Assembly: GCA_018819225.1 (NCBI GenBank) | Contig: JAHJQN010000002.1 | Coordinates: 913-64,912, forward strand | DNA length: 64,000 bases | Direction: 5' to 3' | Source: Candidatus Micrarchaeota archaeon | GTDB lineage: Archaea > Micrarchaeota > Micrarchaeia > Norongarragalinales > SBBD01 | Shown here: piece by piece, positions 10,487 to 64,000 of the stretch | Numbering within the stretch: position 1 is the first letter of the stretch | How the letters are laid out: each line of letters begins with the position of its first letter | The notes under the pieces: generated by a model | Told to the model about the DNA's origin: nothing | Databases searched by the model: none | Seen by the model: only the letters and a program-made list of their open reading frames with translations | Made by a program: the position numbers and the translations under genes

Positions 10487-10541
10487 AGCGCTACCATTCG
10501 CGATGCAGGTTTAAAAGCAAGTGGCAGATCGCTTCCGGTGA

Positions 10542-10865: not shown

Positions 10866-10907
10866 TCCACTCGCAGCTATTACGTTCCCTCTTTTATAAG
10901 TCTTTTC

Positions 10908-11705: not shown

Positions 11706-11833
11706 GAACTTTAAATTATTCCTTCGTTTAAAAAGTGTATCTTGCATTCCATGCGAGTTCAACCCATTCTTTTTATACCCTCAAACATATCGTTTACTTG
11801 GAATAGCCGTTTCTCATTTGAGGTGAGCGTCTC

Positions 11834-24398: not shown

Positions 24399-24589
24399 AA
24401 CACGCGTTTTTTTAATTCCATACGTTTTCCATTTATTTTTTGAACCGTTTTTATTGCGTTTGATTGAACATCGCAGAACGACGTAGTTTATTCCATGTTG
24501 GTTTTTTTCCTAAACTCGTTTACGTCATTCGTGAACCGAGCGATCCATTTTTATATTTCATCCTTCTCCGCTATTGGTGGTCGGCGAAT

Positions 24590-39804: not shown

Positions 39805-40029
39805 TTACAGTTTTTCCTTTTTGAGTACGGGGAGCGCGGTTTTCGGGCTTTCCACCACGTAATACCCCTTCGGCAGCGGAATGGCCTTGTCCTCCACCTT
39901 ATTGAAAAAGTAGAGCGTCACTTTATGGGATTGCGTTTCGTGAAGCCAGTACGTCTGGTTGTTTTTATTCACGTAACTGAACGCGGAACTTCCGAGCATC
40001 ACGTCCTTCAAAACGCTTAAGACTCCCAT
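39805..40029 (-). CDS. Small hypothetical protein
   Basis: YVNKNNQTYWLH...LYFF...LPKGYYVVESPKTALPVLKK; resembles a small uncharacterised prokaryotic family (recalled, not searched). Confidence 0.65.
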   Translation of the reverse strand: MGVLSVLKDVMLGSSAFSYVNKNNQTYWLHETQSHKVTLYFFNKVEDKAIPLPKGYYVVESPKTALPVLKKEKL

Positions 40030-40123
40030 GGCTTTCTCTCCCAAAAGAGGGTTTGCTGCCATAGCTTTTAAAGGGAACTCGCTCTACCCATTCCATTGGT
40101 TTAAATACCATTTTGGGTTGACC

Positions 40124-46100: not shown

Positions 46101-46312
46101 CATCGTCTCCCGCCCAAGTTCCGCCGCCCACGGATTACAGGGACGTGGAAGGATTGGAGAAAGAAAAGGAGAAAATCCTGCGCGTCCTCAACCTGCTCGA
46201 GGAGGAATTGCATCAGGGCGTGATTTCCCAAACCGCGTACCGGGAACTGAAAAAACGCAATGAACGCAAGCTTCAAGGCCTAGAGAAACAGTTAAAAAAA
46301 GCGAGGTATTGA
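40124..46312 (+). CDS. Large (~2060 aa) membrane-anchored surface glycoprotein with Ig-like repeats
   Basis: Signal peptide after TATA box 40100-40107 (true start likely 40124 or 40130, not 40028); very dense N-x-S/T; LYDDGTHGD motif; internal repeats; PT linker; coiled segment; TM; cytoplasmic tail GVISQTAYRELK. Confidence 0.85.
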   Translation: MALGIRRKGLLLLGIFVFLSFSLPVSAADEWSNNTWHYRMRMEINATSYNRTNWTVERDLNFTYLLNQLNGTGSAFDNNSVRVFEYNASGGLVREVPSQFDLLPGYDNTSNAIGTLLFQMNGTTYQNTSRIYYVYFDESFYGAKPVPSYPSAINYSTSEDEFYINNSMLEIGVDTNRNQNTSGIFRIIGREPPFNTMFDVPASGMTAEYSQFSDGTNNLTFNFSGNISVVQGPVRTAVTLVGDEIYWNDPENYTYAGHMVKTYYFYATSGWIKVHLNYTNLNDTAVNRSSTDSGALGFDISAAAPRGFSSTYSSFGNPVDPNSWSMAYPPGSFMEVGLVHLNESGTTNFSIRNDSTYGRIGVHFNYSTVAPNESIADTALIKVNTSEARLAAFQDFRNSWADRESYNESLERWNVTLETNTTFNFYNRNETVVINATILSDIYNLASMVNVSIDNGTPGVPGDDFSVILYDDGTHGDAVSGDLVFTHNFTLNDSANITSNWTLNASAWDASNLFLGFDVYSFNVTEIYNVTMTVLTPLVLANNPVNASLHVQNYRLDTVITGASVSCNYTVQNTFDFNNGTYMVTFTAPSTPNTDYLVMCNATRNGNYGEDADSFAVDADKTNMSISVEPGVYNASSITQADNESYVLLVYSNNTGNGTAVQANLSLALPSGWSANSTLFSCGNVSVGGNCSAAFLVTIPNATGPGNYSINVSALWGNPDATSSSNLTAANVSVLSNPVMNLSVFFLFDYVAPNAEKIFGYFNISSLGNDDLSNVTFNVSNLDDFTITFAPPSFTNISGGTNQAVQINVTAPLGQPTGNYTGTLNVSANNSGYINLTLVIAVSGTNLTISINPNNHTTTNITQTNNNTFVLEVNSTNPGNMTAFDANISLSLPANFTSNSSLYSCGNLNVSDNCSAQFFLTVLAGTPPGNVSVNASLTWNNPEAGNTSNQTPLDVTVASNPVLTVSPANLSANATHGNTTTIANFTLNSTGNDEVQNITYALSNYPNFSVTLINNVSNLTAGTNVTISINVSVPLFHDPGATSGSLYMNSTNAPPHNMSLEINVSEDRSWSMTPTECEKTESPDFGTVCEVFINNTGNTYINFTLDPQSANFSELNITTLNLTKFGNYLFLASYNVTGEPKINYTAIYTINVTDVSGSPLNRSLTIRLIPFASLSVNISVISNRTEQLGSVTVYGNVTDANLVGIVNMTMNITDPTGNTSTNNMTLINVSNNTYQFTSTFPNVSGNTIHRGNYTVVITATDTILVQGNQTNYFFVYTHIVVSVQTLSNNYYPGDTASVFYQVQEAANSTLYPVNATVSVTNPNNITFFNQTYAVGTSGLIEPLPTFVIGNDQPLGNYTLSAYSIYDDTNVSLVVNDTQNYTFEVIESAPSNVTFSGLLAEIDAGDLWYIGDTVETVVSVFDVNGTPLDPDSMNLTVFAPNDTIISNASLANFTKYGTGLYRFAPFTVSTETESGVYIVLLNVSKGNFSTSRLTYFRIASSLTADIETQVIWYPNSVMQFDVVVHALEGLPLDPDSMNITVYDPAEAIYFQANLTNFTRVGEGFYILEYAMPINTATGDYLAFLNVSKGNMHTNAIHPFRVSSGGPYDVRLEMLENEVEQGDYLDFRIVVENMGDVSQDVFLEYWTEDASEQTWYFASEAVFVASGQQQSFLRSAFIYTSQPAGSYFMKVRMSYSVIQPPIFANETFLVTGADVPTTTPTPPSGGGPPTSISVTPTPPPGDISGSPSATPLVDLSQLTIVSVPDEVVVESGDTKYLKIEARNDGLTVLHNLTLLFSGLPLSWTEIRPSQVNALAQNDIASFVVKVVIPKSEKTGIKSVRALVVADEAQDEKQFNLVVFESRVSLVEYELQRLEERLRKLAKNTKEAEDVGKEVNAVWALIEDATAYKNLAQEQLRREQLDDALTNTKLATVSLAKATALLAASGYRPPPFAGIPVIVLVVSVFSAIGLAFLIFLLAKKRGWLNKKLSLNEVIKPSSPAQVPPPTDYRDVEGLEKEKEKILRVLNLLEEELHQGVISQTAYRELKKRNERKLQGLEKQLKKARY

Positions 46313-46340: not shown

Positions 46341-47141
46341 TTGAGCCGGGTCATCGGCGTCGTCTCCGGCAAAGGGGGAGTCGGTAAGACGACCGTCGTA
46401 GTCAACGTCGGCGCAGCGCTCGCGCACCGTTTCAAGAAGCGCGTGGCCGTAGTCGACTGTAACGTGACGACGTCTCACCTGGGGGTCTCCCTCGGTTTTT
46501 CCTATCTCTCGAAGACGCTTAACCACGTTTTGCGAGGGGAAAGCACGATCCACCAAGCCATTTACGATCATCATTCCGGCATGAAAGTCATTCCGTCGTC
46601 GATGAAACTGAAAGACCTGAAAGGCATTGACTTTGCTCGATTGAAGCCTGCGATTCGCGATCTCGAAAAGTCGTTCGATATCGTCTTGTTGGATGCGGGC
46701 CCGGGTTTGGGTCGGGAGGGCGTGGGCGCGCTCCTGGCGTCGCAAGAACTGCTTTTTGTTTCTCAACCGACGCTTCCCGCGATCATGGATATTGTCCGTT
46801 GTCAGGAAGCGGTCAAAGGAACGGACAAGCCGCATCTCGGCATCGTCTTAAATCTCGTGGAGAATCACGGACATCATCTCACGAAGGAGAACGTCGAAAA
46901 TCTTTCGAGCTTGGAAGTGGTTTCCGTGATTCCGCGTGATGACCGCGTGCCGGAGAGTCTAGCGGCCCAAACCCCGGTCGTGCTCTCGCATCCTCAATCG
47001 CCGGCGGGTCAAGAGCTTTTAGCCTTGGCGGCTCGAATCATCGGAGAACCCGTGCAACGCGTGCCCACGCCTTCGGAACACGTCCGTTCGCGCTTTAAGG
47101 GCGCGTTAAGTTCCATCAACCGCGCCATCGGCATCGACTGA
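46341..47141 (+). CDS. minD: MinD/ParA family ATPase
   Basis: Deviant Walker A SGKGGVGKTT, VVDCN, LLDAGPGLG, amphipathic C-terminus. Confidence 0.88.
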   Translation: MSRVIGVVSGKGGVGKTTVVVNVGAALAHRFKKRVAVVDCNVTTSHLGVSLGFSYLSKTLNHVLRGESTIHQAIYDHHSGMKVIPSSMKLKDLKGIDFARLKPAIRDLEKSFDIVLLDAGPGLGREGVGALLASQELLFVSQPTLPAIMDIVRCQEAVKGTDKPHLGIVLNLVENHGHHLTKENVENLSSLEVVSVIPRDDRVPESLAAQTPVVLSHPQSPAGQELLALAARIIGEPVQRVPTPSEHVRSRFKGALSSINRAIGID

Positions 47142-49732: not shown

Positions 49733-50335
49733 CTACGACGCCAAGTCGAACCAAATATCGTAGCTCATATACGACGACGTTTTGGCGACAACGATTTCAT
49801 AGCTGAGCGTCCCGAACCCGTTCGTCGAGGTAAACGCGGAAATTTCCGTGCAGAAGAAGTAGTTGGACGGAGCCGCCGCATCATAGAATATTCCGGTCAA
49901 GCGGTTGTCCGTCGTATTCAATTTGTTCACGCTGGATGTATTGCATACGGTGTCCTGCGTATCGAAATGGTTGCTCGTAACGTAGTATCCGGTCAGCGAG
50001 AAGTTGCCGTCCGTGTTCGCGGTCGTTGGCGCTGCCGAGAAGGGTTCGGTCGGCGTATCCCCTTCATCGAAAAAGAATAGTTTTCCGTAATGGACGGTTT
50101 TCCGGTACATGACGTTTCCCAGAGAGGTGTCGTTTCGGACCTCGAAGCTTACGTTGCCGTAAAAGCCCACGTATTGCTGCATTCGACCCGCTACCGACAT
50201 GTTGCGCGAGGTCCCGTTATTGGTCGGCACGGGCTCCGCCGTATTATCGGATTGCTCGACTGCTGCCCAAACGAACGTCACGAGAAGCGCGAACGCTATA
50301 GGCAACGCGAGAGACAGTACTCTCTTATTCCTCAT
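49733..50335 (-). CDS. Secreted beta-rich surface protein
   Basis: Signal peptide; QQYVGFYGNVS; two Cys; several sequons; no anchor. Confidence 0.7.
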   Translation of the reverse strand: MRNKRVLSLALPIAFALLVTFVWAAVEQSDNTAEPVPTNNGTSRNMSVAGRMQQYVGFYGNVSFEVRNDTSLGNVMYRKTVHYGKLFFFDEGDTPTEPFSAAPTTANTDGNFSLTGYYVTSNHFDTQDTVCNTSSVNKLNTTDNRLTGIFYDAAAPSNYFFCTEISAFTSTNGFGTLSYEIVVAKTSSYMSYDIWFDLAS

Positions 50336-50629
50336 GTGCATCGGTCCTGTGAAACGGTTTTTCTACCAAAACAGTCGCTCCAAGACTGTCCAAAAACCTT
50401 GTTTGATGGGTACGCTTCATCAACGCAAGGTGCTTTATTAATCTTATTGTATGGGTTCCGAACGAATTTTGGTGCGATGATTAACGAATTCTTCCTCGTA
50501 GATTTTAAGGGATTCTGCACCGGGATGAAAGAGTAGGTTTTTAAGGGATTGCTCAATAACGAATGCAGGTTTTCGCGAGGCAATTTGCAGGAATTTTCGC
50601 TTCGTTGTAGGGAGGGGGTTGTACCGTAA

Positions 50630-53600
50630 GTGAAGCATGCTGAGCCACTCAGGCGGAGAAGCCAGACCACGCTACTTTTTTCCTTAGTTTGGCTCACCTT
50701 TTTCGTTGGATTCCTGTTTCAAGCCATTGGCATTGTCAGCGAAACCGCGGTCTCGAATCCCATCGCATTGCAAGAAGAACTGCAGGCCCCGACTCCAGCC
50801 CCGACCCCTGTTCCCTCGCTTCTTCCTTCACAAACTCCTTCTTCTGCTCCTTCACCTGAAACCACTACGACTCCTGTTCCTACGCCTTTCCCTCCCGATG
50901 AAGAAAACCTTTCGCTTACCCCTACTCCTTCAACGGATGCCTCGCCTGCTCCTACTCCCGATTCAACGCCCCTCCCTTCCTCAAGCGCTTATCCTTCATT
51001 GAACGTAACCGCTGCACCCACCCCGGATTCAACCGCAACTCCTTCACTGGAAGCGAATGCCACGCCCACGATCAACGTTACGGTTGCTCCCACCCCTATG
51101 ATCAACGTCACCGCGATCCCAACCATTAATGCGACTCCGACTATTCCCATTAACGCCACGCCTTCCCCTACTGCAAATGAGACGCCGACCCCTACGATCA
51201 AACCTCCAGCAAACGAAACAAACCAAACCAATGAAACGAATGACACGCTTACCTTGCTAACGCTCCAGATTTCCGAACCCGTTTATGCGGATCGGGATTT
51301 CATTGTAGACGCGGTTCTAACCACGGAACTCGGGGCCCCGGTAATGAACGCGATTATTTCTTTGGAAGTAATACGCGAGTTTCAAGCCGTTGAATACGGA
51401 AGCGACGTGCGCAATGAACCCCTTTCTGCGACAACGAATGAAGCCGGCATAGCGTCCTTCACCTTAAACTTGAACGCCGGTACGCATACCTTGAAGGCGT
51501 TGTTTGAAGGAAACGAGGCATTCCAATTACTTCCCTCGGAAGCGCGCAAAAAGCTTCGCGTCATCGCACTCGAGCCTGGTCAAGCGGCTACCCAACTCAT
51601 TCTCACCTTGAACACTACAACCCCAATCCCCAATGAGGCTATCTTAGCTGAGGGTTTTCTTTCTTTCGTGAACGGCTCGGGCATTCCGAACGAAAGCGTT
51701 CAGTTTTCTGTTGATGATGAATGGCTTGGAAATGCGGGCACGAACGAAAACGGTTCCGTCTTTATGCAATACGCGGTTCCCGAAGGAATGAACGGCACGC
51801 ATTTCCTTGAAGCCCTTTTCAATGGAACCGCGAATCTTACTTCCTCGTTTGATTCGGTTGCATTTACGATAACGATTCCTTCCTCGAATGAAACCAACCA
51901 GACCAACCAAACGAATCAGACGAACCAAACCAACGGAACGGATCTTAACGGAACCCACCAGACGTTCTTGAAATTGGATGTTCCGGCCCTGCACTTGCGA
52001 AACGACCCTCTACACGTTCGCGTGCGCGCGTCCGTTCCCAACACCTCGTTCGTTTTGTGGCTGGAGGTTCCCGAAACCTTTTTTGCAGTCAATCGAACCG
52101 CCACCTCCTGCGAGAACTCGTGCGCGTGGGACGTCGAACTCGATGCCTCCCAATCCTGGCCCGGTGAAAAAGAAATTACGGTGCACTTGGAGTCTCCTGA
52201 ACAGAACCTTTCCGAAAGCGCTTCTCTGGCTTTGCTGGGCCGCTCCGAGTTGCACCTTTCGTTGAACGCTTCTTCCGTGCGAGCTAATGAAACCGTTCAA
52301 GCCCGCGTTTACCTGCAGCTCGACAGCGAAGACGTACTGGAAGCGTATCCCGTCGAGTTCTTTGTAGACAATGAAAGCGCGGGAAAGAACGAAACCAATG
52401 AAACCGGGGAAGCGCTCTTCGATTACGCGCCCCCTTCATCCAAGAAACGCGTGCGCGCCCTGCAAGCGGTTTTCGCGGGAACGGATTACATTCTACCGGC
52501 TTCTTCCATCGCCCTCTTCGAGAACGCGGACGCGCCCTCCCTGTTGACTGCGGACATCCGAGGCCTGCGTTCCCATTACACGGCCGGCGAAGAAATAGCG
52601 TTCGAGGTCCTAGCGCTCAACCAATACGCGGAAAAAGTTGATTCGGCAGGCATTGCGGTTTTACTTGAATACCCGGATGGAAATCAAACCTCTCTTCGCA
52701 TTAAGGAAAAAGAGGGCGTGCGATACGTTTCCTTCCCAAGAGGAGAACTGACGCTTCCCGGAATCTACAAAGTGAAAGTAGTCGCTTCTTATGTGAAAGG
52801 CGAGCCCACGCTTCAAGCCGCAACGGAAATCAGCGAAACCATCATTACCCCTTCGCCGACTTCCGGTTTCAAGGCCATTGAACGCATGCGCGAAATCGAG
52901 TCCTTGCAGCAAAACGTCCGCGCCACGGACTTGATTCCCACGCCTCTTGCGTTCGACGAACCCGAGGCCGGCGTTTCCATTTATCCGAATGTTGCGGGAT
53001 TCGATTCCCTCTCAATCGGAGAAAGCGTGGAGGGCGCTGCTGAAAAGGAATTTGCTCTCGGGCTCGTCAACATCAACACGAACCAAACCGTTTACGCCCC
53101 TTCATCCCTGGTCAACGTATTCGTTGGAGTGGTGGCGAACGACGGAGCGCGAGTTGACGGGGCAAACGTCAGCGTCAACATCACCTCTCCATCCGGACTC
53201 AACCAAAGCTTTTCCACAACGGACTACACGATCACGGACAACTGGAACGGCATCTACGATCTGAGCTACTTTGCAACGGAAGTCGGCGCGTATACTATCA
53301 CGGCGCATGCCGAGCGCTTCGATGTCAATCAAGTCGCCAACAGCACGTTTGAAATCCGCGCCTCTTTTCCCATGGATATTGACCGCGAGTTCTCTACGGT
53401 TATATGGCCCCAGCCGCAACTCGCGATATTCAATCTTCACGCCCGGGAAACGCTCCTGAATGCCTCGTTCACGGAATTCGTTCCGCACGGATTCGAAGTC
53501 TATTCGAGTCCCGAAGCCATCATCCAAAACAATTCCGAAAACGTTTCCATCACGTGGCCGCTTGGCGATGTGGCAGCCGGAACGGACCTGCAATTGTTTT

Positions 53601-56600
53601 ACCGTTACACGCCTCCCCCTGAATCGCCTCGCCTCTATCCCTTGGGTGCGGCACGCCTGGATTACGATCTCGGCGGCTTCGAGGAAACGCGTCCCTTCTC
53701 GCTTTCCGTGGACGACTGGGGGTTCATCCACGACTTCACGTTCTACTACGATTCCTCGTTCGGAGGTTCCAATCCGACGCCGTGGCATCCCATGGCGTTA
53801 TGCGCCAACACTTCCTACAACGTCAGCGTCGGCATCACGAACCTGCATTCAGGCGCGGACACCGACGAGGACATCATCATCCAGAGCGCTACGGGCGCCG
53901 TGTTTTCCGCGCTGCCTTCCAACGGCTGGAATCTTGGCGCGGGGGACACCGGGACCCACAAACTGCGGCTCTGCGACTCGGACGGAGGTACCGGAGGGTG
54001 CGCCGACCCGGTCTATGCACGCAACCGCACGGACTACAACGTTTCCGCGAACAAGACCGGCACGTTTACGCTGCGCTCGTACATGATTCAGCGGAACGGA
54101 GTCGTGCAGTTCTTCAGCAACCGACAGCAAGTGCAAGTGTTCCAGTGTACGGGAGTCGCGCAAGCCAATCGTCCTTTACGCGCGCTTGGAACGGACGGCC
54201 ACCCCAACCAGCTCATCCGGGGAACCGTAAACACGATCGCCATGCCCTTGTTCAACTACGAAACCAGCGCTCAAAACGCGGTCAACGTCACGCTCGAAGT
54301 CAAGGACGTTACCCTCTCGACCATGGATTGGTGGACGGAGGAAAATCTTACGCAGACGCGCGACTTTTCCGGCTCAACGCTTGGTGTCAATCCCTCGTTC
54401 AACGAAAGCGTTGTTCGTTGGCGAGTACACGTTCCCGCTGACGCCGACGACGTAACCTTCACGGCGAACGTGAACGTGAGCTACTCTGGCGGCTCGCGCG
54501 TTTACTCTACGCAATTCACGCTTCAACCGCTACCCATCGTGTTATACACGGGCCTTGCAAACTATACGACGGACACAACATCGAACGTAAACGATCGAAC
54601 CAACCAGACCATCGGCTTCTGCAACTTCTACGATCGTCCGGTTAATGCGACGCTGCGAGAGGAATGTCCGGGAGCGTATTTCTGCAGGACGAGCAACCCC
54701 GTTGTATCCGATCCCATGCCCGACGTAAACCTTGAAGGATTTCTCGAATGGCAGAACCGTAGTCTGGATCCCAGCCAATGCTTCGGAACGGCCATCGAGT
54801 ATTATCACGCCGATGAAAACCCGGGAGTGCATACGTTCGTGCAGACCGTGATCTGGGACGATGGATTGCTTGGAATCGATGAGTTCCTTTCTGTTTCCCA
54901 ATACAATGCGGATCAAACCGCCCCCTATGCCATCATCTCCAATGATAATGTGTCTGAAAACGCGAACACGTCCGTAGCACAGAACGCTACTTTCTCACCA
55001 GTGCTCCGAATCGTCAACCGCGGAGGCGCGCAAGGCAATAATATGCTCCGCATGCACTACAACGAGCTATGGGTTCCGCAAGGCTTCTCTCGGCCGCAAG
55101 CTTTCGTCGGTATCCCCTCTGGATCCGGAGGTTCTTCACCGCTGCTACCCGGTTTCCCCATCGGCTCCGAGGAAGAAGGCTGGTGGAGCAAGTTCGTGAG
55201 CTTTTCGGAAGAAAACGAATTGGCCGAGGCAACTGGCGAACTCTACGTGAATTTCAAGACCAACGCGTCCTTCACCGTAGATTATCCTCCCGGAGGAAAG
55301 CTCTTCCAGTTCTGGAGCAACGGAGGTGTTGACTCCCCGCTTCCGCGCCAGTACCGCATGATGCAGCAGAAGTACGTCGTAGAGGTCAAAGGCCCGGAAA
55401 TCAAGACCGTTCGAAGAATTTACAACGAGAGCACGGGCCAGTGGACGAAAAACATTCCGGACACGCTGACCTGCGGAACCTACAATTTCAGCATCGAGGT
55501 CATCAACCGCGGCAACTGGAACGTGACTGGAGCCATTGTAAACGAAACGTTCCCATCACAAGTGTCGGCAGGCAACTTCACTCCCTCGAACGATTCCGGA
55601 GGCGATTATTTCGCGTACTGGAACGAGGGAAGCGGCTTGAATTTGTACGCGAACGGAACCTTGGGCTCCCGGTTCTACAACTACACGTTCACGCTTCCCC
55701 TCGGAACCGCGAACGATACCGTCTTCAGAGTCAACGTCACGAACGGGTCCAATTACGTGGACCATTACGGCCAATTTTATTCCATTGATCTGGTTTGCAC
55801 GGACATTCCGCAGTTCCGTAGCGTGAACGTCACGAACCAGACCATGGGCTGGGGGTTCACGAAAAACTTTTCCGTTGAAGTCTTCAGCCAATTCCACAAC
55901 CTGACCGTCAACTTGTCGGTTTCCCAAAATCCTGCAAGCGGTTTCCAGACCATCAACTGGACTTTCGTGAACGATTCGGGGAACTGGGGGTGGGCGAACT
56001 TCACGCAAAGCTTCAATTCTACCGATGTGGGCACGTGGTACTTCAAGTTCCAGGCGTGGGACGAGGATGACAACAGCAACTCGAGCATCGTTGACGTCGT
56101 CGAAACCTTTTACGTTGTCCAAAAGGACACCGTAACCGCGCAGCACATTTTCGGTAACCTCAGTACATCCAACCGTTCAGGTTCCCAAGTCGCGCCGTTG
56201 ATCGTGCGCCTGACGGACACGAACGGCTCCGTGCTGGACGGACAGGAAATCAACGTTTCCGTTACCACGGACGGAATTTCCTTCGGCTCCGCCACGGCCA
56301 ACATCACTAACGGGTCCGGCGACGTTCACCTGGATTTCGATGCCACATGCGTTCCGCTGTATTCGGTCGGGACCCAGCGATGGAAAGTAGAAATTTCCGG
56401 CAGTGCAGCGTACAACGACTTCACGAGCGAATTGTATTATCTCTATGTACGGGGCAATCTGCTCAACAACCAGTCGGATCCCACGGGCGCCAGCAATTTC
56501 ACTGAAGGGGACGACGTCACGATTCTGGGGAGCGTGACCGACGACTGCACCACCTACCAGCCAGGGGCTACGGTCCAGTTCAATTTGACGGGCGACTGGA

Positions 56601-59600
56601 AATACTATCAATGCACTCCGACGAACGATCTGGGAGGGGGATTCTATCGATGTATTTGGGAAACAAATGGCTTGTATGGCGGATGGTACAACGTCACTCA
56701 GAACTCCTCGCTTGCGAATCATTACCAAAACTTCAGCGTTGCAAACAACTACTCGAATCCCGGAGGCAGTTTGTTCTACTTGTACGGAAAAGTCAAGCTA
56801 TCCGGACCCAACGCAACGCCTACCGGAGAAGGCTGGGGGCGGGCGGTCAACTACAGCGTCAATTATACCGCCCCGCATCCGGATGTGGCATCCACGGCTC
56901 GCCTGGAGCTCGAGTGTCCTGGTTGCAGCCCCGAAGTGCTTCCGTTCGAAGTCTCTCCGCAATACGATTGCGTGGGCTGCGACAACGTATCCGCGAGCTG
57001 GAATTACAATTATTCTTGTACGACGATCGGAACGTGGTATTACACGTTCCGAGGAAATACGTCGGAAGGAACGAGTTCCGCGACTTCGCAATTCAATCAC
57101 TTGGTTACGAAAGACACGGAGACCATTGATTATTACGCGGGAAATAATACGATCGCTAATCGATCCGGCAGCCAAGTCCGAGCCATTTCAGTTATCGTTA
57201 ACGATACCGATCGAAATCTGGCTCCGGATCCCGCGGCAACGGTCTGGTTTAATGTAAGCACCAATTCTTCCGCCAATGTCTCGTTGGGAAGCAATTCCAC
57301 GAATACGACGGGAGTCGCTTTTTACGATTTCAACCCGTCTTGCGATTACGGTGTGGGGTATCGGAACTGGAGCGCGTTCATCAATTCAACTGAAGCGTGT
57401 TATGCCGTAAACGGGACGAGCATCCTAAACGTTTCCGTGTACGGAGATTTCGCTTTCAACGTCACGGATCCCAACGGCGACGAATACGTTGCGGGAAACA
57501 TCACGAACATCAGCGTGGAAGTGCAGGACGAGTGCGGCTTGCTTCTCACGGATATCGCAACCAACCGCATCTGGTTCTCGATCGCAGGGCCTTTCAACAC
57601 GACGGTATGCGATTCCACGAACATCACCAGCATGGGAAACGGCACCTACATTTGTACGTGGAATACGACGAATTACTGGGCCGGCTATTACGATGTGACG
57701 ATCAACGCCACAAAAGATTTCTACAACTACTATGAGCACTTGGACAACAACACGGTGCGCTTGTTGTCCCCCAACAACACCGCGCCCCTCGTATTGAACG
57801 AAAGCGTTTCCCCGGATCCCGGCGGCTGGAGCGACTCGTTCAATTTCTCTGTTCGCGTCCAGGACGCGGAGAGCAACAACGTGTTCGTCGCATTATACGA
57901 TGCGAACACGACCGTGGGTCCGTTCCGTCATTTCGAGAACCAGACTTGCACTTCCTGTAACGATCAGCAAGTCAATTTCACGATCGACAAGACCATACAC
58001 AATTACACGTGCGCCGACATGGGGACGAAGTACTATAAGTTCAATGCCACGGACGATGAGGGCATCACGAACGAGTCCGTGGTTTCAAACTGGACGATCG
58101 AGGAAGACAATACGACTGCGTTGCACTACGCGGGAAACGAATCGTATGTCAACCGGTCGGGCACGAACTCCACCTTATTGTACATTCAAGTCAACGACAC
58201 CGACAACCAGTCGTTCGTTCCCGCTGAAGTGAATTCCACGGTTTGGATTACGACGGACGGAAGCAATTACGATTTGGGAGGCGTCAACGTCACGAACGCG
58301 TCCGGAGTCACGAACCGGTCCTTCGATCCCTCGTGCAGTTACGCGGTGGGAGAACAGCGTTGGAAAGGAGGCGCCAGGGATGAAACGTGTTACGAGGACA
58401 CGAACTCCACGGACTACCTATCCGTTTACGTCGTCGGAGACTTTGTCCTCAACATTTCCGAACCCGTCAATCAGAATACGAGTAACATAACGGCAGGAAA
58501 CAACATCACGCTGAAGGCGGAGGTGCAGGACGAGTGCGGATTGCTGGTGGACGCGGCTTCGGTCAATTTCAGCGTCGAACACCGTGGAACCATATACGAT
58601 TGTCCCCTAACCGAAGAAAACGGCACGGGAATCTACAACTGCACGTTGCAGACGGACAATTTCATTGCGGGTTCCTACCAAGTGCACGTCGACGTCAACA
58701 AGACGTTCTACAATAATGCATCGACTACGAAGGATTACGCGTTCCACATCGAGAATGGAACGAACTTAACGGTTCAGAATGTAACTCCTCGCAGTTCGTA
58801 TTGGGGAGACACCTATAACTTCACTGTAAACGTCACGGATCCGGATGACAACACGACGGTTTACTTGTGGCAGAAGCGACCGGGGGGCACGTGGACATTC
58901 ATTTCGCAACAGGATTGTTTCAACTGCACGAACTCGCAGCTGCTTTTCCAAGACAGTTCGCACAGCGCGTGCTCGTTCTTCGGTAACTGGACGTGGAAAT
59001 TCAATGCCACGGACTCGTTTGGAAACCTTTCCTCGCTTTCGGATGACTGGTTCAACCTCACGAAACGAAATCTTATTACCGCATCTCGCGAAGGGGATTT
59101 GGATGCCTGGAAGCGTAACACGAATTCTTCGCAGATGACCATCGCGTTTATCGATGCAGTTGACCCGGATCTCGATATAGGAAGCGGAGTCGTTGGAACG
59201 CTTTACGTGACTACGAACAATTACACGTATGTTGGAAACGGCTCCAATACATCGGTCAATGGAAATGTATCGCGTATTTGGCAGCCCGCATGCGGTTTCG
59301 ATGTCGGACAACACGTGTTCAGCATCGGAGTAGCGGAAACCTCTTGTTATTTCGCAACGAATTCTTCAAACTACAGCGCCGAACTCTGGGCCCCTCCGTT
59401 GAACAACAATGCGACGCAGCCCCATAATGGCGCATGTTATTTGGTCGGCGATTCCATTACGATGAACGGAACCATTCACGATGAATGTGAAGCAGTGGTG
59501 GGAGCGTCCCCCGTTAACTTCTACGCGCAACGCAGCTCGTATTTCGCTGCAGGCGCCACGACGGATTTGGGCGCCGGAAACTACAGTGCAGACTGGGATT

Positions 59601-62600
59601 CCTCTGGACGATCCTACGGCGTCTACAACATTTCATTGAACAGCTCGAAATCCTACTACGATAAAGGAGAAAACAAGAGCATGGATGCGTTGCGCTTAGC
59701 GTCCGTTCCTCAACTCTGGAACCACACCGTCGATATTTCGAGTGATGGATGGGGAGTTCAGCGCCAAGTCAACGTCACGGCGCGCAACGGCGACGGAGAA
59801 AACTTCGATATTTTCTTCTGGGCGCGCGCTGCCGATGAAGCCTGGGAGCTCATGGATTCCCAGACGTGCAGCAATTGTCTCTTCGAGGAAGTGAAGACGT
59901 TCTATTTCATGAGCTCGTGCTCGAACTTGACGGCGAACGCCACGTGGGAGTACAAGTTCAACACTTCGGGAAGCAGCTCGTGCGGATCCTTCAGCAATGA
60001 AACCTCGGTTCAAAACTTCACGCTCGAAAAGGATAACGTATCCGTTTCCTTGCTGTCCATTGACACGAATGTTTCCCGAATTGATAGCAACCGGATTCAG
60101 CTTTCCGCTCGCGTGAACGACACGGACAACGGAACGCTCGTTGGCGCCAGCGTTAATTCCACGTTCTGGGTTACGTACAACTTCACTGCCTATGACCCGG
60201 GTTGGACGAACTTAACGAATGCCTCTGGAGAAACCATGTATTTCTTCAATCCGTGGTGTGCCTATAACGCCTCGATTCACTATTGGAAAGTGGGCGTATT
60301 GAACGATAGCTGCTACTCGAATAAGAATTCCACCGAGGGCTCCTTTGATGTCATCGGGCGCATGAATGTCACGATTGAAATTCCGCCCATTGAAGATACT
60401 TTCAATGTCACGGACGATATACCGATTTCTTGGAACGTCCAAAGCGATTGTTCGGAGGAAGGCTATTTACCGGATCTGGAGCCGACCACGGGATTCACGA
60501 ACGTCACCTTAATCTTCAATACCACGGGCAATCCTTCCTCGAATGCGTGTTCCCCGGTCAACAACTCGTACAACGGAACATACAATTGCTCGTGGAATAC
60601 CTCGGAGGAGCCTCAAGGCAATTGGACGATCCGCATTTTCGGAAACAGGACCTATTACGATGAGAACCAAACCGACTTCACGAACTGGATCAATCTTTCC
60701 AACCGGCAGACCAACGCGACGGATCCCATTGTCAACGTTTCCATGGACGGGTGGGGCGCCGTATTCCAGTTCAACACAACGGTGAGCGACCCCGAAGCGG
60801 ATGATGTTACTTGCAAGCTATTCGTTAACTCGGGAAGCGGATGGAAGGAGTTTGGTTCCGATGTGGTATACGGGGGGAGCGGAAACTGCAGCGTCGTTGT
60901 CAATAATTTCGCGTGCGGTGACATAAACAACGAATCCTCTTTCTTGTTCCAAATCGATGACAACGCGTCCGCCAAGCAATTCAATACCACTACCAACACG
61001 TCACTGAACTTGACGGAAGACGAGCTCATCGTATACTATATTTCAGGAAACTTCACGGATGTCAACCGAACCGGAACGAATACTTCCCTGTATCGAATGC
61101 GGGTTTATGACAATGACAATTTAGCGTTTGCTCCCGCGGGCGTCAATACTTCGGTCTGGGTGACCTTGAACAACGGCATCGCGTGGGATTCCGGCAACTA
61201 CTCGACGACGGATTCCAGCGGCTATATCGACTATAATTTCAATCCGACCTGCAGCTATACTGTCGGACAACAAAACTGGGTAGGCGGAGTGAGTAACGAC
61301 AATTGTTACTTGGATACGAACATCACGGAAACCATGAATCTCACGATTAATGGAACCATTAACTCGTACTTGGTCGGCCCCAACGGAACCGAAGTGCTTC
61401 GTGGAGACAATGTCACCATTCGGGTCAACGCCACGGATGATTGTAGCGTGGCTATGGAGAACGCGTCCTCCATGTTCTATGCCGTTCACCGGAATTCCTC
61501 AACGGGTTATGCGTGCGGCGATCCGCAAAATGAAGCCACGGGTTTCTACAACTGTACGCTCAACACCACGAGTTTCGCTCTCACGCACGGCGGCGGATTC
61601 TACAGCGCCATCAACCTCTCGCAGCCGTATTACATCAACGCCACGCTCAACATTTCTTATAACGCAACGAATTCATCGTTCTGGCATGAGCTGATTCCCC
61701 TTCTTTCCGACGAAGCCGTTACGCCTTCAACAGGAGGCTGGGGAGAAACGTTCTATTTCACCGTAAACGGAACGGACTACGACAATGACACGATCACGAT
61801 TTACGCGTACTTCAAGCAATTGACTCCCGTGGCGGGATCGTGGACCCTCTTAGGTTCGCAAGCCGTCACCGGATTCAACCAGACCGCGAATTTCACGAAA
61901 ACCTTCTCCACCGATCCCGCGAACATTGGCAACTGGAGCGTACGATTTAATGTAACGGAAGATGATGTCTGGAACTTTACGGCTCCGGATGTGAATTTCA
62001 CGGTGGAGAAAGACGATACGAATGTCACGTACGTTTCCGGCAACCTTTCGAACGTGAGCCGAATCGGCACCAACTTTACTACGCTGCGCTCGAGGGCTTT
62101 TGACGAGGACAAGGTGACTCAGAATATTGGGTCGCATGAAGGACGCTTCTGGATGACGAAAGACGGAACAAACTGGGATGCCGGCACGCAGATTTACACG
62201 AACGCATTCGGCAATTTCACGGTAACGAACGCGCAATTCGAACCGGATTGTACTTATGAAGTGGGTCCGCAGCAATGGAAGATGGGCTTGCTGGAAGCCG
62301 ACTTGTATAAAGCCTCCAACATGACGGCTAATGCGACTATTGATTTGCGCAGCGAATTCGATCCAGAAATGATCGGTCCGCGTAATGCCACGTACATCAA
62401 GGGTTCCGATGATGTTCCGTTGTACGCGAATCTATCGGATCTGGGCGGGTGCGGGCTCGTGAACGACAGTACGGTATATTTCCAAGTGGATTCCGCATAC
62501 GCCTGCGGGCAAGCAACGGATCTCGCGAACAATGGCACCTACAATTGTACGATTCCGGCAGCGATTATGGGTTCATGGGCATACGGATGGTATAACGTCA

Positions 62601-64000
62601 CTGTTAATGCTACTCGACCGTATTACAATTACACGTATGAAGCATTCAATTACTCGTTCTATCTTGCAAGCAGTCCTTCGCTCAACACGCCGACCATTGA
62701 TACGTCTTCCGGAGGTTGGGGAAGAAACTGGACATTTACCGTTCGAGCAACGGACCTAGACGACAATAATCTTACCGTGCAGGTTTGGAGAAACTTCTCG
62801 GGAACGCATCAATTGCTGGGAACGCAATGGTGCACTTCCTGTTCGAATACCCTCCTTACTTTCTACTACTGGGACTTCACGTGCGGTGATATCGGAGGAG
62901 GAGAATACTTCTTCAATGCAACGGACGAGTTCAACCTCACCGCGAATACGACTCCGGCTGCATTTACTGTAGATAAGAATTCCATCGTGATGGAGCTCGT
63001 TGAAGGAAACGGCGGAAATATCGGTCGGCCGGAAGTCAACGCGACTCCCTTGGTCGTCCGGGCATTCGACAGCGTCTTGAACGATTATGTGGGAGCAGGA
63101 GTCAATGGTTCGTTCAACATCACGGTGAACGGAAGCGATTGGGGCGACTCCATTTACAACACCACGAATTCTTCCGGGCACTTGGTATTGAATTGGGATC
63201 CGGTATGCGGTACCGTCGCAGGTCAACAGAAGTGGCGAGGCGGGGTATTCAACGATTCATGTTACTCGAATTCATGGACGGCTAACTTCAGCAAGAACGT
63301 AACGGGCGGCTTGAATCTAACGGTGGAAATCCCCGAATACGATACGAACTTCAATACCTCGCAACCCGTAGAGACGTTCTTCAACATCACGTCCGAGTGC
63401 GTGGTGGACGGGCCCATTGGCAGCGGGTCCACGAGCGTGGAATTCATACCGATTTCGGGCTCCGTGAATTCCTGCGGTACCATTAACGACTTCGGCAATG
63501 GAACCTATAATTGCACGTGGCCAGGCGGAACCGAGCTTGGAAAATGGGATATCCGAATCAACGCAAGCGTCAATAACCTGTACTTCTTCAACAGCACGAC
63601 GTTTGATGATTGGATCAATCTCAGCAACGCCGTTTCTTCCTATACCAACCTATCCGTTACCCCGAAAGATGATGGCTGGAGTCACGTGTACACGTTCTCC
63701 GTGAATGTCAGCGATCCCGATAACAACAACATAAACTGTACGTTGTGGACCAGCACGAATGGCGGAGCGGATTGGGTCATGCGCGGAAACGGAACGGTTT
63801 CCGAAGGGCAAGGTGTTTGTGCCGTAAACTATTCCGGATTTTCTTGCGGGGACATCGGCACCGACAATTCATTCCAATTTACGGTAACGGACTGGAACAC
63901 GACCGAGATTTACAATACGATTAACACGACGAATGCGAGCGGTCCGAACCTGACGCAAAGTTTAGTTGGAATTAACTACACCGTCGGAAATGAAACCTCG
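50630..64000 (+). CDS. Giant surface glycoprotein/adhesin (>=4457 aa, continues beyond the right edge)
   Basis: GTG 50630 after GGAGG; N-terminal hydrophobic segment and P/T-rich stalk. Every segment I translated is in frame +2 through to 64000, and the track lists no frame +2 ORF here, as expected when the frame has no stop. Confidence 0.88.
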   Translation, partial: MKHAEPLRRRSQTTLLFSLVWLTFFVGFLFQAIGIVSETAVSNPIALQEELQAPTPAPTPVPSLLPSQTPSSAPSPETTTTPVPTPFPPDEENLSLTPTPSTDASPAPTPDSTPLPSSSAYPSLNVTAAPTPDSTATPSLEANATPTINVTVAPTPMINVTAIPTINATPTIPINATPSPTANETPTPTIKPPANETNQTNETNDTLTLLTLQISEPVYADRDFIVDAVLTTELGAPVMNAIISLEVIREFQAVEYGSDVRNEPLSATTNEAGIASFTLNLNAGTHTLKALFEGNEAFQLLPSEARKKLRVIALEPGQAATQLILTLNTTTPIPNEAILAEGFLSFVNGSGIPNESVQFSVDDEWLGNAGTNENGSVFMQYAVPEGMNGTHFLEALFNGTANLTSSFDSVAFTITIPSSNETNQTNQTNQTNQTNGTDLNGTHQTFLKLDVPALHLRNDPLHVRVRASVPNTSFVLWLEVPETFFAVNRTATSCENSCAWDVELDASQSWPGEKEITVHLESPEQNLSESASLALLGRSELHLSLNASSVRANETVQARVYLQLDSEDVLEAYPVEFFVDNESAGKNETNETGEALFDYAPPSSKKRVRALQAVFAGTDYILPASSIALFENADAPSLLTADIRGLRSHYTAGEEIAFEVLALNQYAEKVDSAGIAVLLEYPDGNQTSLRIKEKEGVRYVSFPRGELTLPGIYKVKVVASYVKGEPTLQAATEISETIITPSPTSGFKAIERMREIESLQQNVRATDLIPTPLAFDEPEAGVSIYPNVAGFDSLSIGESVEGAAEKEFALGLVNINTNQTVYAPSSLVNVFVGVVANDGARVDGANVSVNITSPSGLNQSFSTTDYTITDNWNGIYDLSYFATEVGAYTITAHAERFDVNQVANSTFEIRASFPMDIDREFSTVIWPQPQLAIFNLHARETLLNASFTEFVPHGFEVYSSPEAIIQNNSENVSITWPLGDVAAGTDLQLFYRYTPPPESPRLYPLGAARLDYDLGGFEETRPFSLSVDDWGFIHDFTFYYDSSFGGSNPTPWHPMALCANTSYNVSVGITNLHSGADTDEDIIIQSATGAVFSALPSNGWNLGAGDTGTHKLRLCDSDGGTGGCADPVYARNRTDYNVSANKTGTFTLRSYMIQRNGVVQFFSNRQQVQVFQCTGVAQANRPLRALGTDGHPNQLIRGTVNTIAMPLFNYETSAQNAVNVTLEVKDVTLSTMDWWTEENLTQTRDFSGSTLGVNPSFNESVVRWRVHVPADADDVTFTANVNVSYSGGSRVYSTQFTLQPLPIVLYTGLANYTTDTTSNVNDRTNQTIGFCNFYDRPVNATLREECPGAYFCRTSNPVVSDPMPDVNLEGFLEWQNRSLDPSQCFGTAIEYYHADENPGVHTFVQTVIWDDGLLGIDEFLSVSQYNADQTAPYAIISNDNVSENANTSVAQNATFSPVLRIVNRGGAQGNNMLRMHYNELWVPQGFSRPQAFVGIPSGSGGSSPLLPGFPIGSEEEGWWSKFVSFSEENELAEATGELYVNFKTNASFTVDYPPGGKLFQFWSNGGVDSPLPRQYRMMQQKYVVEVKGPEIKTVRRIYNESTGQWTKNIPDTLTCGTYNFSIEVINRGNWNVTGAIVNETFPSQVSAGNFTPSNDSGGDYFAYWNEGSGLNLYANGTLGSRFYNYTFTLPLGTANDTVFRVNVTNGSNYVDHYGQFYSIDLVCTDIPQFRSVNVTNQTMGWGFTKNFSVEVFSQFHNLTVNLSVSQNPASGFQTINWTFVNDSGNWGWANFTQSFNSTDVGTWYFKFQAWDEDDNSNSSIVDVVETFYVVQKDTVTAQHIFGNLSTSNRSGSQVAPLIVRLTDTNGSVLDGQEINVSVTTDGISFGSATANITNGSGDVHLDFDATCVPLYSVGTQRWKVEISGSAAYNDFTSELYYLYVRGNLLNNQSDPTGASNFTEGDDVTILGSVTDDCTTYQPGATVQFNLTGDWKYYQCTPTNDLGGGFYRCIWETNGLYGGWYNVTQNSSLANHYQNFSVANNYSNPGGSLFYLYGKVKLSGPNATPTGEGWGRAVNYSVNYTAPHPDVASTARLELECPGCSPEVLPFEVSPQYDCVGCDNVSASWNYNYSCTTIGTWYYTFRGNTSEGTSSATSQFNHLVTKDTETIDYYAGNNTIANRSGSQVRAISVIVNDTDRNLAPDPAATVWFNVSTNSSANVSLGSNSTNTTGVAFYDFNPSCDYGVGYRNWSAFINSTEACYAVNGTSILNVSVYGDFAFNVTDPNGDEYVAGNITNISVEVQDECGLLLTDIATNRIWFSIAGPFNTTVCDSTNITSMGNGTYICTWNTTNYWAGYYDVTINATKDFYNYYEHLDNNTVRLLSPNNTAPLVLNESVSPDPGGWSDSFNFSVRVQDAESNNVFVALYDANTTVGPFRHFENQTCTSCNDQQVNFTIDKTIHNYTCADMGTKYYKFNATDDEGITNESVVSNWTIEEDNTTALHYAGNESYVNRSGTNSTLLYIQVNDTDNQSFVPAEVNSTVWITTDGSNYDLGGVNVTNASGVTNRSFDPSCSYAVGEQRWKGGARDETCYEDTNSTDYLSVYVVGDFVLNISEPVNQNTSNITAGNNITLKAEVQDECGLLVDAASVNFSVEHRGTIYDCPLTEENGTGIYNCTLQTDNFIAGSYQVHVDVNKTFYNNASTTKDYAFHIENGTNLTVQNVTPRSSYWGDTYNFTVNVTDPDDNTTVYLWQKRPGGTWTFISQQDCFNCTNSQLLFQDSSHSACSFFGNWTWKFNATDSFGNLSSLSDDWFNLTKRNLITASREGDLDAWKRNTNSSQMTIAFIDAVDPDLDIGSGVVGTLYVTTNNYTYVGNGSNTSVNGNVSRIWQPACGFDVGQHVFSIGVAETSCYFATNSSNYSAELWAPPLNNNATQPHNGACYLVGDSITMNGTIHDECEAVVGASPVNFYAQRSSYFAAGATTDLGAGNYSADWDSSGRSYGVYNISLNSSKSYYDKGENKSMDALRLASVPQLWNHTVDISSDGWGVQRQVNVTARNGDGENFDIFFWARAADEAWELMDSQTCSNCLFEEVKTFYFMSSCSNLTANATWEYKFNTSGSSSCGSFSNETSVQNFTLEKDNVSVSLLSIDTNVSRIDSNRIQLSARVNDTDNGTLVGASVNSTFWVTYNFTAYDPGWTNLTNASGETMYFFNPWCAYNASIHYWKVGVLNDSCYSNKNSTEGSFDVIGRMNVTIEIPPIEDTFNVTDDIPISWNVQSDCSEEGYLPDLEPTTGFTNVTLIFNTTGNPSSNACSPVNNSYNGTYNCSWNTSEEPQGNWTIRIFGNRTYYDENQTDFTNWINLSNRQTNATDPIVNVSMDGWGAVFQFNTTVSDPEADDVTCKLFVNSGSGWKEFGSDVVYGGSGNCSVVVNNFACGDINNESSFLFQIDDNASAKQFNTTTNTSLNLTEDELIVYYISGNFTDVNRTGTNTSLYRMRVYDNDNLAFAPAGVNTSVWVTLNNGIAWDSGNYSTTDSSGYIDYNFNPTCSYTVGQQNWVGGVSNDNCYLDTNITETMNLTINGTINSYLVGPNGTEVLRGDNVTIRVNATDDCSVAMENASSMFYAVHRNSSTGYACGDPQNEATGFYNCTLNTTSFALTHGGGFYSAINLSQPYYINATLNISYNATNSSFWHELIPLLSDEAVTPSTGGWGETFYFTVNGTDYDNDTITIYAYFKQLTPVAGSWTLLGSQAVTGFNQTANFTKTFSTDPANIGNWSVRFNVTEDDVWNFTAPDVNFTVEKDDTNVTYVSGNLSNVSRIGTNFTTLRSRAFDEDKVTQNIGSHEGRFWMTKDGTNWDAGTQIYTNAFGNFTVTNAQFEPDCTYEVGPQQWKMGLLEADLYKASNMTANATIDLRSEFDPEMIGPRNATYIKGSDDVPLYANLSDLGGCGLVNDSTVYFQVDSAYACGQATDLANNGTYNCTIPAAIMGSWAYGWYNVTVNATRPYYNYTYEAFNYSFYLASSPSLNTPTIDTSSGGWGRNWTFTVRATDLDDNNLTVQVWRNFSGTHQLLGTQWCTSCSNTLLTFYYWDFTCGDIGGGEYFFNATDEFNLTANTTPAAFTVDKNSIVMELVEGNGGNIGRPEVNATPLVVRAFDSVLNDYVGAGVNGSFNITVNGSDWGDSIYNTTNSSGHLVLNWDPVCGTVAGQQKWRGGVFNDSCYSNSWTANFSKNVTGGLNLTVEIPEYDTNFNTSQPVETFFNITSECVVDGPIGSGSTSVEFIPISGSVNSCGTINDFGNGTYNCTWPGGTELGKWDIRINASVNNLYFFNSTTFDDWINLSNAVSSYTNLSVTPKDDGWSHVYTFSVNVSDPDNNNINCTLWTSTNGGADWVMRGNGTVSEGQGVCAVNYSGFSCGDIGTDNSFQFTVTDWNTTEIYNTINTTNASGPNLTQSLVGINYTVGNETS
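55847..64000 (+). repeat. Tandem ~325-aa protein repeat, at least 8 full units plus a partial ninth
   Basis: Trp of the recurring G-W-G-like motif at 55850, 56834, 57827, 58802, 59750, 60752, 61739, 62717 and 63677. Confidence 0.85.

Follow-up and report, generated by a model that had tools for sequence, protein, structure and literature searches.

In a 64,000-nucleotide stretch of DNA from a Candidatus Micrarchaeota archaeon (GenBank assembly GCA_018819225.1, contig JAHJQN010000002.1, here called C8, positions 913–64912 of the forward strand; hereafter the window), we analysed a repeat of about 325 residues carried by a giant reading frame that is still open where the window ends. The repeat unit is best seen as a three-domain module of β-sandwiches stapled at both internal interfaces by cysteine pairs, with no conserved staple between units. 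Further, comparison of units within and between homologues indicates that the true period is three units in the order X-Y-Z, that is nine domains or about 975 residues, and that this order is older than the split of the lineages that have it. The array is probably the stalk of a giant membrane-anchored surface protein of a DPANN archaeon with a small genome, a stiff, glycan-shielded rod that would serve contact with a host cell. The protein very probably is a homologue of the SPEARE proteins and has their architecture, the comparison being with their published description only. The class of giant SPEARE-type proteins is already published, and the finding does not amount to a new kind of system; it describes that class at a new level, by the three-domain unit and the X-Y-Z order.

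A diverged repeat outside the named families

The frame (50630..64000, plus strand; first start codon GTG) encodes 4457 residues inside the window, the N-terminal part of the surface protein, and runs on without a stop to the end of C8, giving 4722 residues (14.2 kb) in all. The original prediction, drawn from the letters of the window, had placed an array of eight full units and the beginning of a ninth from position 55847 onward, measured between G-W-G-like motifs. We located these motifs at residues 1739, 2066, 2397, 2722, 3038, 3372, 3701, 4027 and 4347, the first mapping to nucleotide 55844, in agreement with the predicted start. Seven of the eight intervals have exactly the predicted lengths (331, 325, 316, 334, 329, 326 and 320 residues), while the first measures 327 residues and not 328. 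All eight central motifs quoted (F.P.C.Y.VG.Q.W) were found, at residues 1903, 2234, 2565, 2884, 3206, 3537, 3870 and 4189, with a spacing of 319–333 residues and a ninth copy at residue 4516 outside the window; the recurrent motifs are likewise present in the consensus, as F.FNATD, E.D..GN..VNR.G, D.D, TN.SG, DEC and G.YNCT. The unit count is correct inside the window but not as the end of the array, which comprises nine full units and a tenth begun at the contig end, and resumes on another contig, C5.

Units differ strongly from one another in DNA, as had been stated, with identities of 21–39% in protein and 36–51% in codon-aligned DNA, a single pair reaching 51% and 58%, respectively. There is no long DNA repeat: a direct-repeat scan and Tandem Repeats Finder (longest period 500) returned only matches of 20–53 nucleotides in the repeat region. 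A hidden Markov model built from an alignment of nine units, a step the original prediction had proposed, recovers all nine with E values of 1e-100 to 4e-122. That the expansion is old agrees with the one-to-one mapping of units onto a 12,373-residue orthologue and with unit types that are common to several phyla.

No named family could be assigned to the unit, again as had been claimed, and in Pfam, NCBIfam and the sequences of the PDB no repeat family already described matched it over its full length. The Pfam matches are marginal. Big_7 (PF17957) scores 27.8 bits over three stretches of the whole C8 protein (cut-off 24.1), but at most 20.4 bits for a single unit (best E 8e-4), and matches five of 15 units at E ≤ 1 over about 70 of 325 residues, in domain C only. 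Big_1 (PF02369) reaches 18.8, 21.0 and 16.1 bits, below its cut-off of 34.9, and matches two of the 15 units, again in domain C; no PKD profile in Pfam matched at E ≤ 1. NCBIfam gave 0 families and the PDB sequence search a best E of 0.19, while the nearest ESM Atlas cluster (score 0.97) is archaeal and unnamed, carries the label 'hypothetical protein' and has Big_7 on 17% of its members. To judge from literature searches at the level of article text, the stapled 325-residue unit, its load of 19–29 N-glycosylation sequons and the conserved X-Y-Z order appear to be undescribed; domain tables relevant to this point may stand in the supplement of PMC6642349 (SI Table S2, Fig. S17).

The unit profile matched 913 representatives at E ≤ 1e-3 and 331 at E ≤ 1e-30 among 1.84 billion cluster representatives, the best stretches nearly always spanning the whole profile. 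All 48 proteins of the first search contain 3–17 near-full units at a spacing of about 305–360 residues; most of their records are marked as partial and as 'hypothetical', and some as 'PEGA' or 'FixH family'; the profile could serve to annotate proteins that now bear such names. The matches come from DPANN lineages, apart from a few short contigs binned as Chloroflexi, Patescibacteria, Bathyarchaeia or Halobacteria, and the nearest homologues are named Micrarchaeota. Keeping in mind that genome counts are lower bounds, repeats being often left unassembled in metagenome-assembled genomes (MAGs), the unit is present in 13 of 31 close genomes, including eight of the ten in the same family, in nine of 17 high-quality close genomes, and in seven of 201 genomes of an even phylum sample, all seven from the order of this genome. 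In one relative (G003:C35:8262-9212, minus strand) two in-frame TAA stops lie within a unit match and the array is broken into several frames, which may be decay or an assembly error.

Three sandwiches per unit and the cysteine pairs between them

The AlphaFold2 model of unit 3, calculated from a 15-unit alignment (A1), is all-β, with a predicted local distance difference test (pLDDT) score of 92.4 and a predicted template modelling score (pTM) of 0.75, and structure comparison splits it into sandwiches of residues 1–111 (domain A), 112–222 (B) and 223–325 (C). Domain A is PKD/FN3-like, the PKD domain 4xed giving Z 11.1 (root-mean-square deviation, rmsd, 2.2; 97 residues aligned; 16% identity) with many unrelated sandwiches within 1 Z. 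Domain B is macroglobulin-like (6rpt_E, Z 11.0) and resembles macroglobulin and invasin domains, and domain C resembles Big_7. Taken as a whole, the unit aligns to extended multi-Ig rods, namely 6xi3 (Z 11.8, rmsd 6.6, 281 residues aligned), invasin 1cwv (Z 11.2, 270 residues), titin I67-I69 (2rjm; Z 10.4, 263 residues), FdeC and ICAM-5. Foldseek returned arrays of complement/macroglobulin MG domains, MpIBP and SiiE at E of about 1e-8 to 6e-11, with low template modelling scores. Z values of this size are typical of any β-sandwich and show fold and extended shape, not kinship. Both structural claims of the original prediction, three Ig-like domains in each unit and a long rod, are supported by the confident model, its three sandwiches and the rod-like matches.

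A model of two consecutive units (alignment A2, 34 rows from this gene and the orthologue of a relative, G006) has a pLDDT of 89.0 and a pTM of 0.47. Its strands continue through the junction, with no linker of low confidence, and rods of four domains align across it (6xi3 with 375 residues, to model residues 113–540), so that units would seem to abut without linkers. When two copies of the unit were submitted to complex prediction, the score was 0.00 against a mark of 0.42, a result that speaks neither for nor against lateral packing.

Cysteine pairs were tabulated over 646 units aligned to the profile (632 near-full units from 172 proteins and 14 of this gene). Cys187 and Cys254 occur together in 583 units, with one only in 39 and neither in 24. 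For Cys79 and Cys205 the same three counts are 396, 8 and 242; for Cys276 and Cys289, 456, 58 and 132; for Cys58 and Cys61, which form the CxxC motif, 226, 57 and 363; and for Cys38 and Cys66, 104, 11 and 531. The last two pairs are mutually exclusive (phi −0.35). By the domain limits, 79–205 would link A to B and 187–254 B to C, which points to inter-domain disulfide staples, and the strand order of the model, read from its DSSP string, would place residues 79, 205, 187 and 254 at facing domain ends. The further pairs would lie inside A and C, although CxxC could alternatively be a metal site. Disulfide stabilisation, which had been proposed for the unit, is supported by the co-occurrence of cysteines over the 646 units, with two pairs bridging neighbouring domains rather than lying within one.

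Three unit types and a nine-domain period

In the intact 12,373-residue orthologue, mean unit identity is 37.4, 40.5, 33.7, 32.7 and 31.9% at lags of 3, 6, 9, 12 and 15 units, and 27.5–29.3% at all other lags. Lag 3 also ranks top among lags 1–5 in 15 of 15 homologues with at least eight contiguous units, a set that includes proteins named Micrarchaeota, Nanohaloarchaea, Aenigmatarchaeota and Parvarchaeota. In every one of the 11 proteins with at least nine units, proteins which are mutually related and not independent, the unit phases match those of this gene by one clear cyclic shift, and only 0–8 of 500 unit-order shuffles reach the observed contrast. The three types differ in their cysteines as well: among type X units 83% have the Cys38–Cys66 pair, against 0% among Y and Z units; the share with CxxC is 11% in X, 25% in Y and 43% in Z; and the Cys79–Cys205 pair is commonest in Z (89%), followed by X (76%) and Y (35%). 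Together, the lag-3 identity, the shared phases and the type signatures argue that the true period is three units. The X-Y-Z order is common to Micrarchaeota, Aenigmatarchaeota, Parvarchaeota, a nanohaloarchaeal MAG and others; proteins of this kind have so far been described as having 'many Ig-like domains', and the unit and its order give them a defined grammar. One unit, or one X-Y-Z block, offers a well-behaved fragment for structural and binding work.

In the window, where all units lie on the plus strand, unit 1 (55799..56779, residues 1724–2050; profile E 1.3e-100) and unit 2 (56780..57772, residues 2051–2381; E 2.4e-103; two CxxC motifs) each have their best match, at 43%, in the corresponding units g1 and g2 of G006. 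Unit 3 (57773..58747, residues 2382–2706), which is of type X and is the modelled unit, divides into domains A (57773-58105), B (58106-58438) and C (58439-58747). It is followed by unit 4 of type Y (58748..59695, residues 2707–3022) and unit 5 of type Z (59696..60697, residues 3023–3356), both delimited by motif spacing and profile. The profile and the cysteine table define unit 6, of type X (60698..61684, residues 3357–3685), in which a Cys38–Cys66 pair replaces CxxC, and unit 7, of type Y (61685..62662, residues 3686–4011), which is without both Cys79 and Cys205. Unit 8, of type Z (62663..63622, residues 4012–4331; motif spacing and profile), is the last full unit of the window; unit 9, of type X, has only its first 126 residues there (63623..64000) and is completed outside it at residue 4663.

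One probable gene on two contigs

The genome is a 1.37-Mb MAG of eight contigs in which the unit profile matches at two further places only, a frame on contig C5 and one gene on contig C3. The C5 piece is a 4205-residue frame on the minus strand that begins mid-unit at the very contig end, with one partial and five full units followed by about 2,000 residues of other β-sandwich sequence, a hydrophobic helix and a tail. In G006, a relative of the same family, the gene is an intact single frame of 12,373 residues with 26 units (G006:C12:99310-136428). Residues 636–4719 of the C8 piece are colinear with its residues 531–4601 (36.7% identity over 4178 columns), and residues 1–4205 of the C5 piece with 8167–12372 (43.8% identity). 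The same relative shares both flanking genes, the upstream gene of 202 residues (49% identity over 200 residues) and the downstream gene of 1030 residues (37% over 739). In another relative, G016, the gene is split over the two ends of the 1.30-Mb contig C1, as 6975 and 5236 residues with 27 unit matches.

From this colinearity with a relative we infer that the C8 and C5 pieces are two parts of one gene. Unit by unit, a1–a3 of the C8 piece map to g1–g3 of G006, a4–a6 to g4–6/g7–9 and a7–a10 to g10–g13, and b0–b1 and b2–b5 of the C5 piece map to g15–g16 and g23–g26. Because of this mapping, the unassembled gap would comprise 2 + 3k units, with a minimum of about 670 residues, and the gene would appear to be without whole three-unit blocks relative to G006. 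The whole protein would have about 9,600 residues or more, and about 17 units or more. This pair of orthologues, the only one compared, differs in unit number by whole blocks of three, which offers a rule for judging broken MAG assemblies. As a cause of the contig break, recent duplication was considered and rejected, the closest unit pair across the break being only 58% identical in DNA. The versions of G006 (12,373 residues) and G016 (6975 + 5236 residues) exceed 9,409 residues, the length of the largest protein of a cultivated archaeon according to the portion of PMC10266531 used here.

An ATPase tail and the architecture of SPEARE proteins

On the C5 piece there is a transmembrane helix followed by RRAYKAYRRRQRK, and the tail, of about 370 residues, contains a Walker A motif (GGTGSGKS) and a Walker B motif (MIIYDE). 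Its Pfam matches are DUF87 (36.5 bits, cut-off 23.2), the family called 'Helicase HerA central domain', and HerA_C (22.3 bits, cut-off 22). It is the best-conserved part of the protein, 48–69% identical in 19 homologues versus 25–45% for the units.

These features recall the SPEARE proteins of Nanohaloarchaeota. According to the sections of PMC6642349 (Hamm et al. 2019) on which we draw, the cytoplasmic part of these proteins is the most conserved, similar sequences occur in Micrarchaeota and other DPANN assemblies, a SPEARE protein was detected by proteomics, and at least one laminin-G domain is stated for all of them. The sections of PMC10266531 (Front Microbiol 2023) used here describe giant membrane-anchored extracellular proteins, SVXNc_0300 of 9,409 and BNXNv_0298 of 8,880 residues, with 'around 75' Ig-like domains of 100 residues, a transmembrane helix, a VirB4/TraG-like ATPase and a coiled coil. 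They also dispute several of the original SPEARE domain calls and note a second gene of the VirB4/TraG ATPase family directly downstream in nanohaloarchaeal loci. For the ATPase, the same portions of the two articles propose roles in uptake and degradation (PMC6642349) or in type-IV-like secretion (PMC10266531).

The present protein shares with these a very long single reading frame (4722 residues on C8 and 4205 on C5, with an orthologue of 12,373), an N-terminal export signal (here the hydrophobic residues 14–36, recognised by eye), a tandem Ig-like ectodomain and, on the C5 piece, one transmembrane helix near the C-terminus, a cytoplasmic P-loop ATPase of HerA/VirB4 type and a helical end. 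It differs in its repeat, as the portions of the two papers considered here describe tandem Ig-like domains of about 100 residues and make no mention of a 325-residue unit, inter-domain cysteine pairs or a nine-domain order. The laminin-G domain stated for the published SPEARE proteins was not recognised here by Pfam, which was run at E ≤ 1 on the C8 piece and at E ≤ 0.1 on the C5 piece, and the scan of both pieces likewise found no WD40/PQQ propeller, protease or toxin-like region. Nor was a VirB4/TraG match obtained in the three downstream frames scanned on C5 (269, 1030 and 208 residues). A nanohaloarchaeal MAG protein with DUF87 (P0005, 7378 residues) has 15 near-full copies of the 325-residue unit and is homologous in units and tail. 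Longer relatives were sought with a 975-residue query (29 matches in a search over lengths of 1708–4875 residues) and a query based on the protein P0002 (ten matches in a search over 3815–12142 residues); none of the relatives found exceeds 7378 residues or comes from a cultured nanohaloarchaeon. The published SPEARE proteins NAR1_1133, AOV94740.1, SVXNc_0300 and BNXNv_0298 were not among the ten matches of the latter search, which used a word-based pre-filter.

A putative stalk for host contact and its alternatives

DPANN archaea live attached to other archaea, and their mode of attachment is an open question for which giant, ATPase-tailed surface proteins are leading candidates. Besides its cysteines, the array is distinguished by its N-glycosylation sequons. 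We counted 241 N-x-S/T sequons in the 2999 residues of the repeat region (8.0 per 100 residues) versus 69 ± 6.8 in composition-preserving shuffles, and 6.6–8.0 per 100 residues in the ectodomain, against a genome median of 0.35 per 100 (open frames of 200–2000 residues) and 0 in the 371 residues of the cytoplasmic tail. There are 19–29 sequons per unit in this gene (family mean 20.1), and some of their positions are kept across the family, N90 being present in 62% of units and N210 and N288 each in 57%. Such a pattern agrees with the topology that we predict and with a putative dense coat of glycans.

Cumulatively, we consider it probable that the repeat is the stalk of a membrane-anchored surface protein that meets the host cell. 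In the mechanism that we propose, the N-terminal hydrophobic segment would export the chain, a Pro/Thr linker and about 1,500 residues of assorted β-sandwich domains would come next, and the unit array would then form a stiff, protease-shielded rod through its A–B and B–C cysteine staples and roughly 19–29 N-glycans per unit. An Ig-like domain is roughly 4 nm long. By that measure a unit would be about 12 nm long, the array of this gene, with its 17 or more units, would reach about 200 nm, and that of the intact orthologue, with 26 units, about 300 nm; a stalk of this kind could hold the distal N-terminal domains far from the cell, where they would contact a host, with the conserved ATPase tail coupling it to the cytoplasm. 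The array might grow or shrink by unequal crossing-over between in-phase units.

Comparable rods exist in bacteria. The extenders MpIBP, SiiE and LapA consist of one domain of about 100 residues repeated, often with near-identical DNA, are stiffened by Ca2+ and leave the cell by type I secretion. Region II of MpIBP (4p99, 5irb), SiiE (2yn3, 2yn5) and the LapA-type 6xi3 are likewise long extender rods of tandem Ig-like sandwiches and are among the best structural matches, with Foldseek E of about 1e-8 to 4e-10; in contrast, the present protein has a three-domain unit, 21–39% identity between units, putative disulfides, sequons, and its own transmembrane helix and ATPase tail. Pfam gave no RTX match, as a mark of type I secretion, at the C-terminus of the C5 piece, and only the rod fold is held in common. 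Invasin, intimin and FdeC (Big_1; 1cwv, 1f02, 4e9l) resemble it as rigid Ig-like arrays that project an adhesive tip, but here there is neither an outer-membrane β-barrel anchor nor a tip like a C-type lectin, and Big_1 scores 16–21 bits against a cut-off of 34.9.

Several points weigh against a stalk for host contact. We infer adhesion, disulfides and glycans alike. The pTM falls to 0.47 for two units, which makes the angle between units, and the stiffness of the rod, uncertain. A comparison of contig ends revealed no overlap between those of C8 and C5, and the case for their join is the colinearity of both pieces with the G006 gene. Over the first ~1,700 residues, Pfam recognised no enzymatic, lectin or ligand-binding head, only sandwiches of MG2, filamin, MG4 and YtkA-like type. 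If the N-terminal segment is left uncleaved, both ends would sit in the membrane and the picture of a distal tip fails. Finally, only some relatives have the repeat (13 of 31 close genomes and 7 of 201 in the phylum sample), which would make it non-essential to the lifestyle, although these counts are lower bounds.

The lack of a recognised binding head, together with the extreme sequon density of 8.0 per 100 residues, would also suit a cell coat, with the rods and their glycans arranged as a protective brush or as an envelope resembling an S-layer, instead of a host tether, and DPANN S-layer candidates are also multi-Ig and heavily N-glycosylated in the part of bioRxiv 10.1101/2023.10.27.564410 that we draw on. 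We regard a coat as unlikely nonetheless: a coat protein needs no conserved cytoplasmic ATPase tail (48–69% identity across phyla), a single-copy gene for some 10,000 residues is a costly way to build one, and only nine of the 17 high-quality close genomes have it.

The tail itself invites another explanation. Relatives of HerA, FtsK and VirB4 act as rings, the stalk here has a fused ATPase with intact Walker A and B motifs, and the strict nine-domain register across phyla would suit in-register lateral packing. HerA/VirB4-like tails could gather in a ring and their stalks bundle into a tube or track, along which the ATPase would drive effectors, DNA or nutrients between symbiont and host, a reading proposed in the portion of PMC10266531 considered here, which argues for a type-IV-secretion-like role. 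Such a conduit seems to us doubtful, however. Strings of β-sandwiches have no channel of their own, roughly 19–29 glycans per unit would hamper tight packing, and, unlike in nanohaloarchaeal loci, no further secretion-system gene lies beside the giant gene, the downstream frames being without a VirB4/TraG match.

The period also has a parallel in titin. In its A-band, super-repeats of 7 and 11 domains of Ig and FN3 type match the period of a partner filament. The likeness lies in the hierarchical, fixed order of sandwich types that recurs along a giant rod; titin is, however, a cytoplasmic protein of eukaryotic muscle without disulfides or glycans, there is no sequence relationship, and no partner is known here. 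It is conceivable, though rather improbable, that the X-Y-Z period (perhaps 35–40 nm) is a structural register of the same kind, in which chains gathered by a ring of HerA-type tails would pack in phase, or partners such as the free single-unit protein described below would dock periodically, so that symbiont and host cells would be joined by an ordered fibre or conduit driven from the cytoplasm.

A ruler or scaffold, on which the period would be a binding register with partners docking every 35–40 nm or so, we consider improbable. Period and unit types are indeed kept across phyla, and there are candidate partners, a secreted 377-residue paralogue that is exactly one unit, 47% identical to b1 (P0160, on C3), and the product of the 1030-residue downstream gene (P0192), which is syntenic in G006. 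The period can, however, also be explained by a three-unit ancestor combined with unequal crossing-over between in-phase units. An artefact (a chimeric assembly, a pseudogene or repeated DNA whose frame is open by chance) might be suspected from a gene broken at a contig end in an eight-contig MAG, but is made negligible by the 14.2-kb stop-free frame, the lack of any DNA-level repeat able to mislead an assembler, the 913 matching database representatives and the intact 12,373-residue orthologue in the same neighbourhood.

The N-terminal region and neighbouring genes

Ahead of the putative stalk, the translation of the giant gene has a hydrophobic segment at residues 14–36 (50669..50737, plus strand) that follows a cluster of three arginines and is a putative signal peptide or signal anchor. 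A Pro/Thr/Ser-rich linker with sequons covers about residues 48–200 (50771..51229, plus strand), and a linker of the same kind is found in the G006 orthologue. In the distal non-repeat region, Pfam recognises MG2-like (residues 647–717; 35.4 bits, cut-off 32.8) and filamin-like (residues 832–892; 35.9 bits, cut-off 26.9) β-sandwich domains (52568..53305, plus strand). A 9-nucleotide tandem repeat, AAACCAACC, present in 4.9 copies at 51891-51934, codes for consecutive N-Q-T sequons in the N-terminal part of the same protein.

Upstream of the giant gene lies the divergent 202-residue gene on the minus strand (49733..50341), which has no Pfam match and occupies the same place in G006. A second large surface protein, of 2094 residues (40028-46309, plus strand; NPCBM_assoc 85.8 bits, MG2 47.7 bits), is encoded 4 kb upstream of the giant gene and is followed by a gene for a ParA/MinD-type ATPase (46341-47138, plus strand). 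Downstream of the giant gene, on C5, the 1030-residue protein P0192 (L001:3417-6509, minus strand) is Lys/Glu-rich, highly charged and without a Pfam match, and its position is kept in G006. The product of the free-standing gene P0160 on C3 (L004:5017-6246, minus strand; 377–409 residues) has a hydrophobic segment at its N-terminus and a single stalk unit; the gene adjoins the gene of a sequon-rich protein of 948 residues, and a 432-residue frame lies about 0.5 kb away.

Elsewhere in the window, an aconitase gene (24464-26518, plus strand) has its nearest relatives in the species-genome collection mostly in bacterial MAGs, at 50–64% identity, the top one named Deltaproteobacteria, and one partial fragment match reaches 73% identity. 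To judge from these relatives, the gene may have been acquired horizontally.

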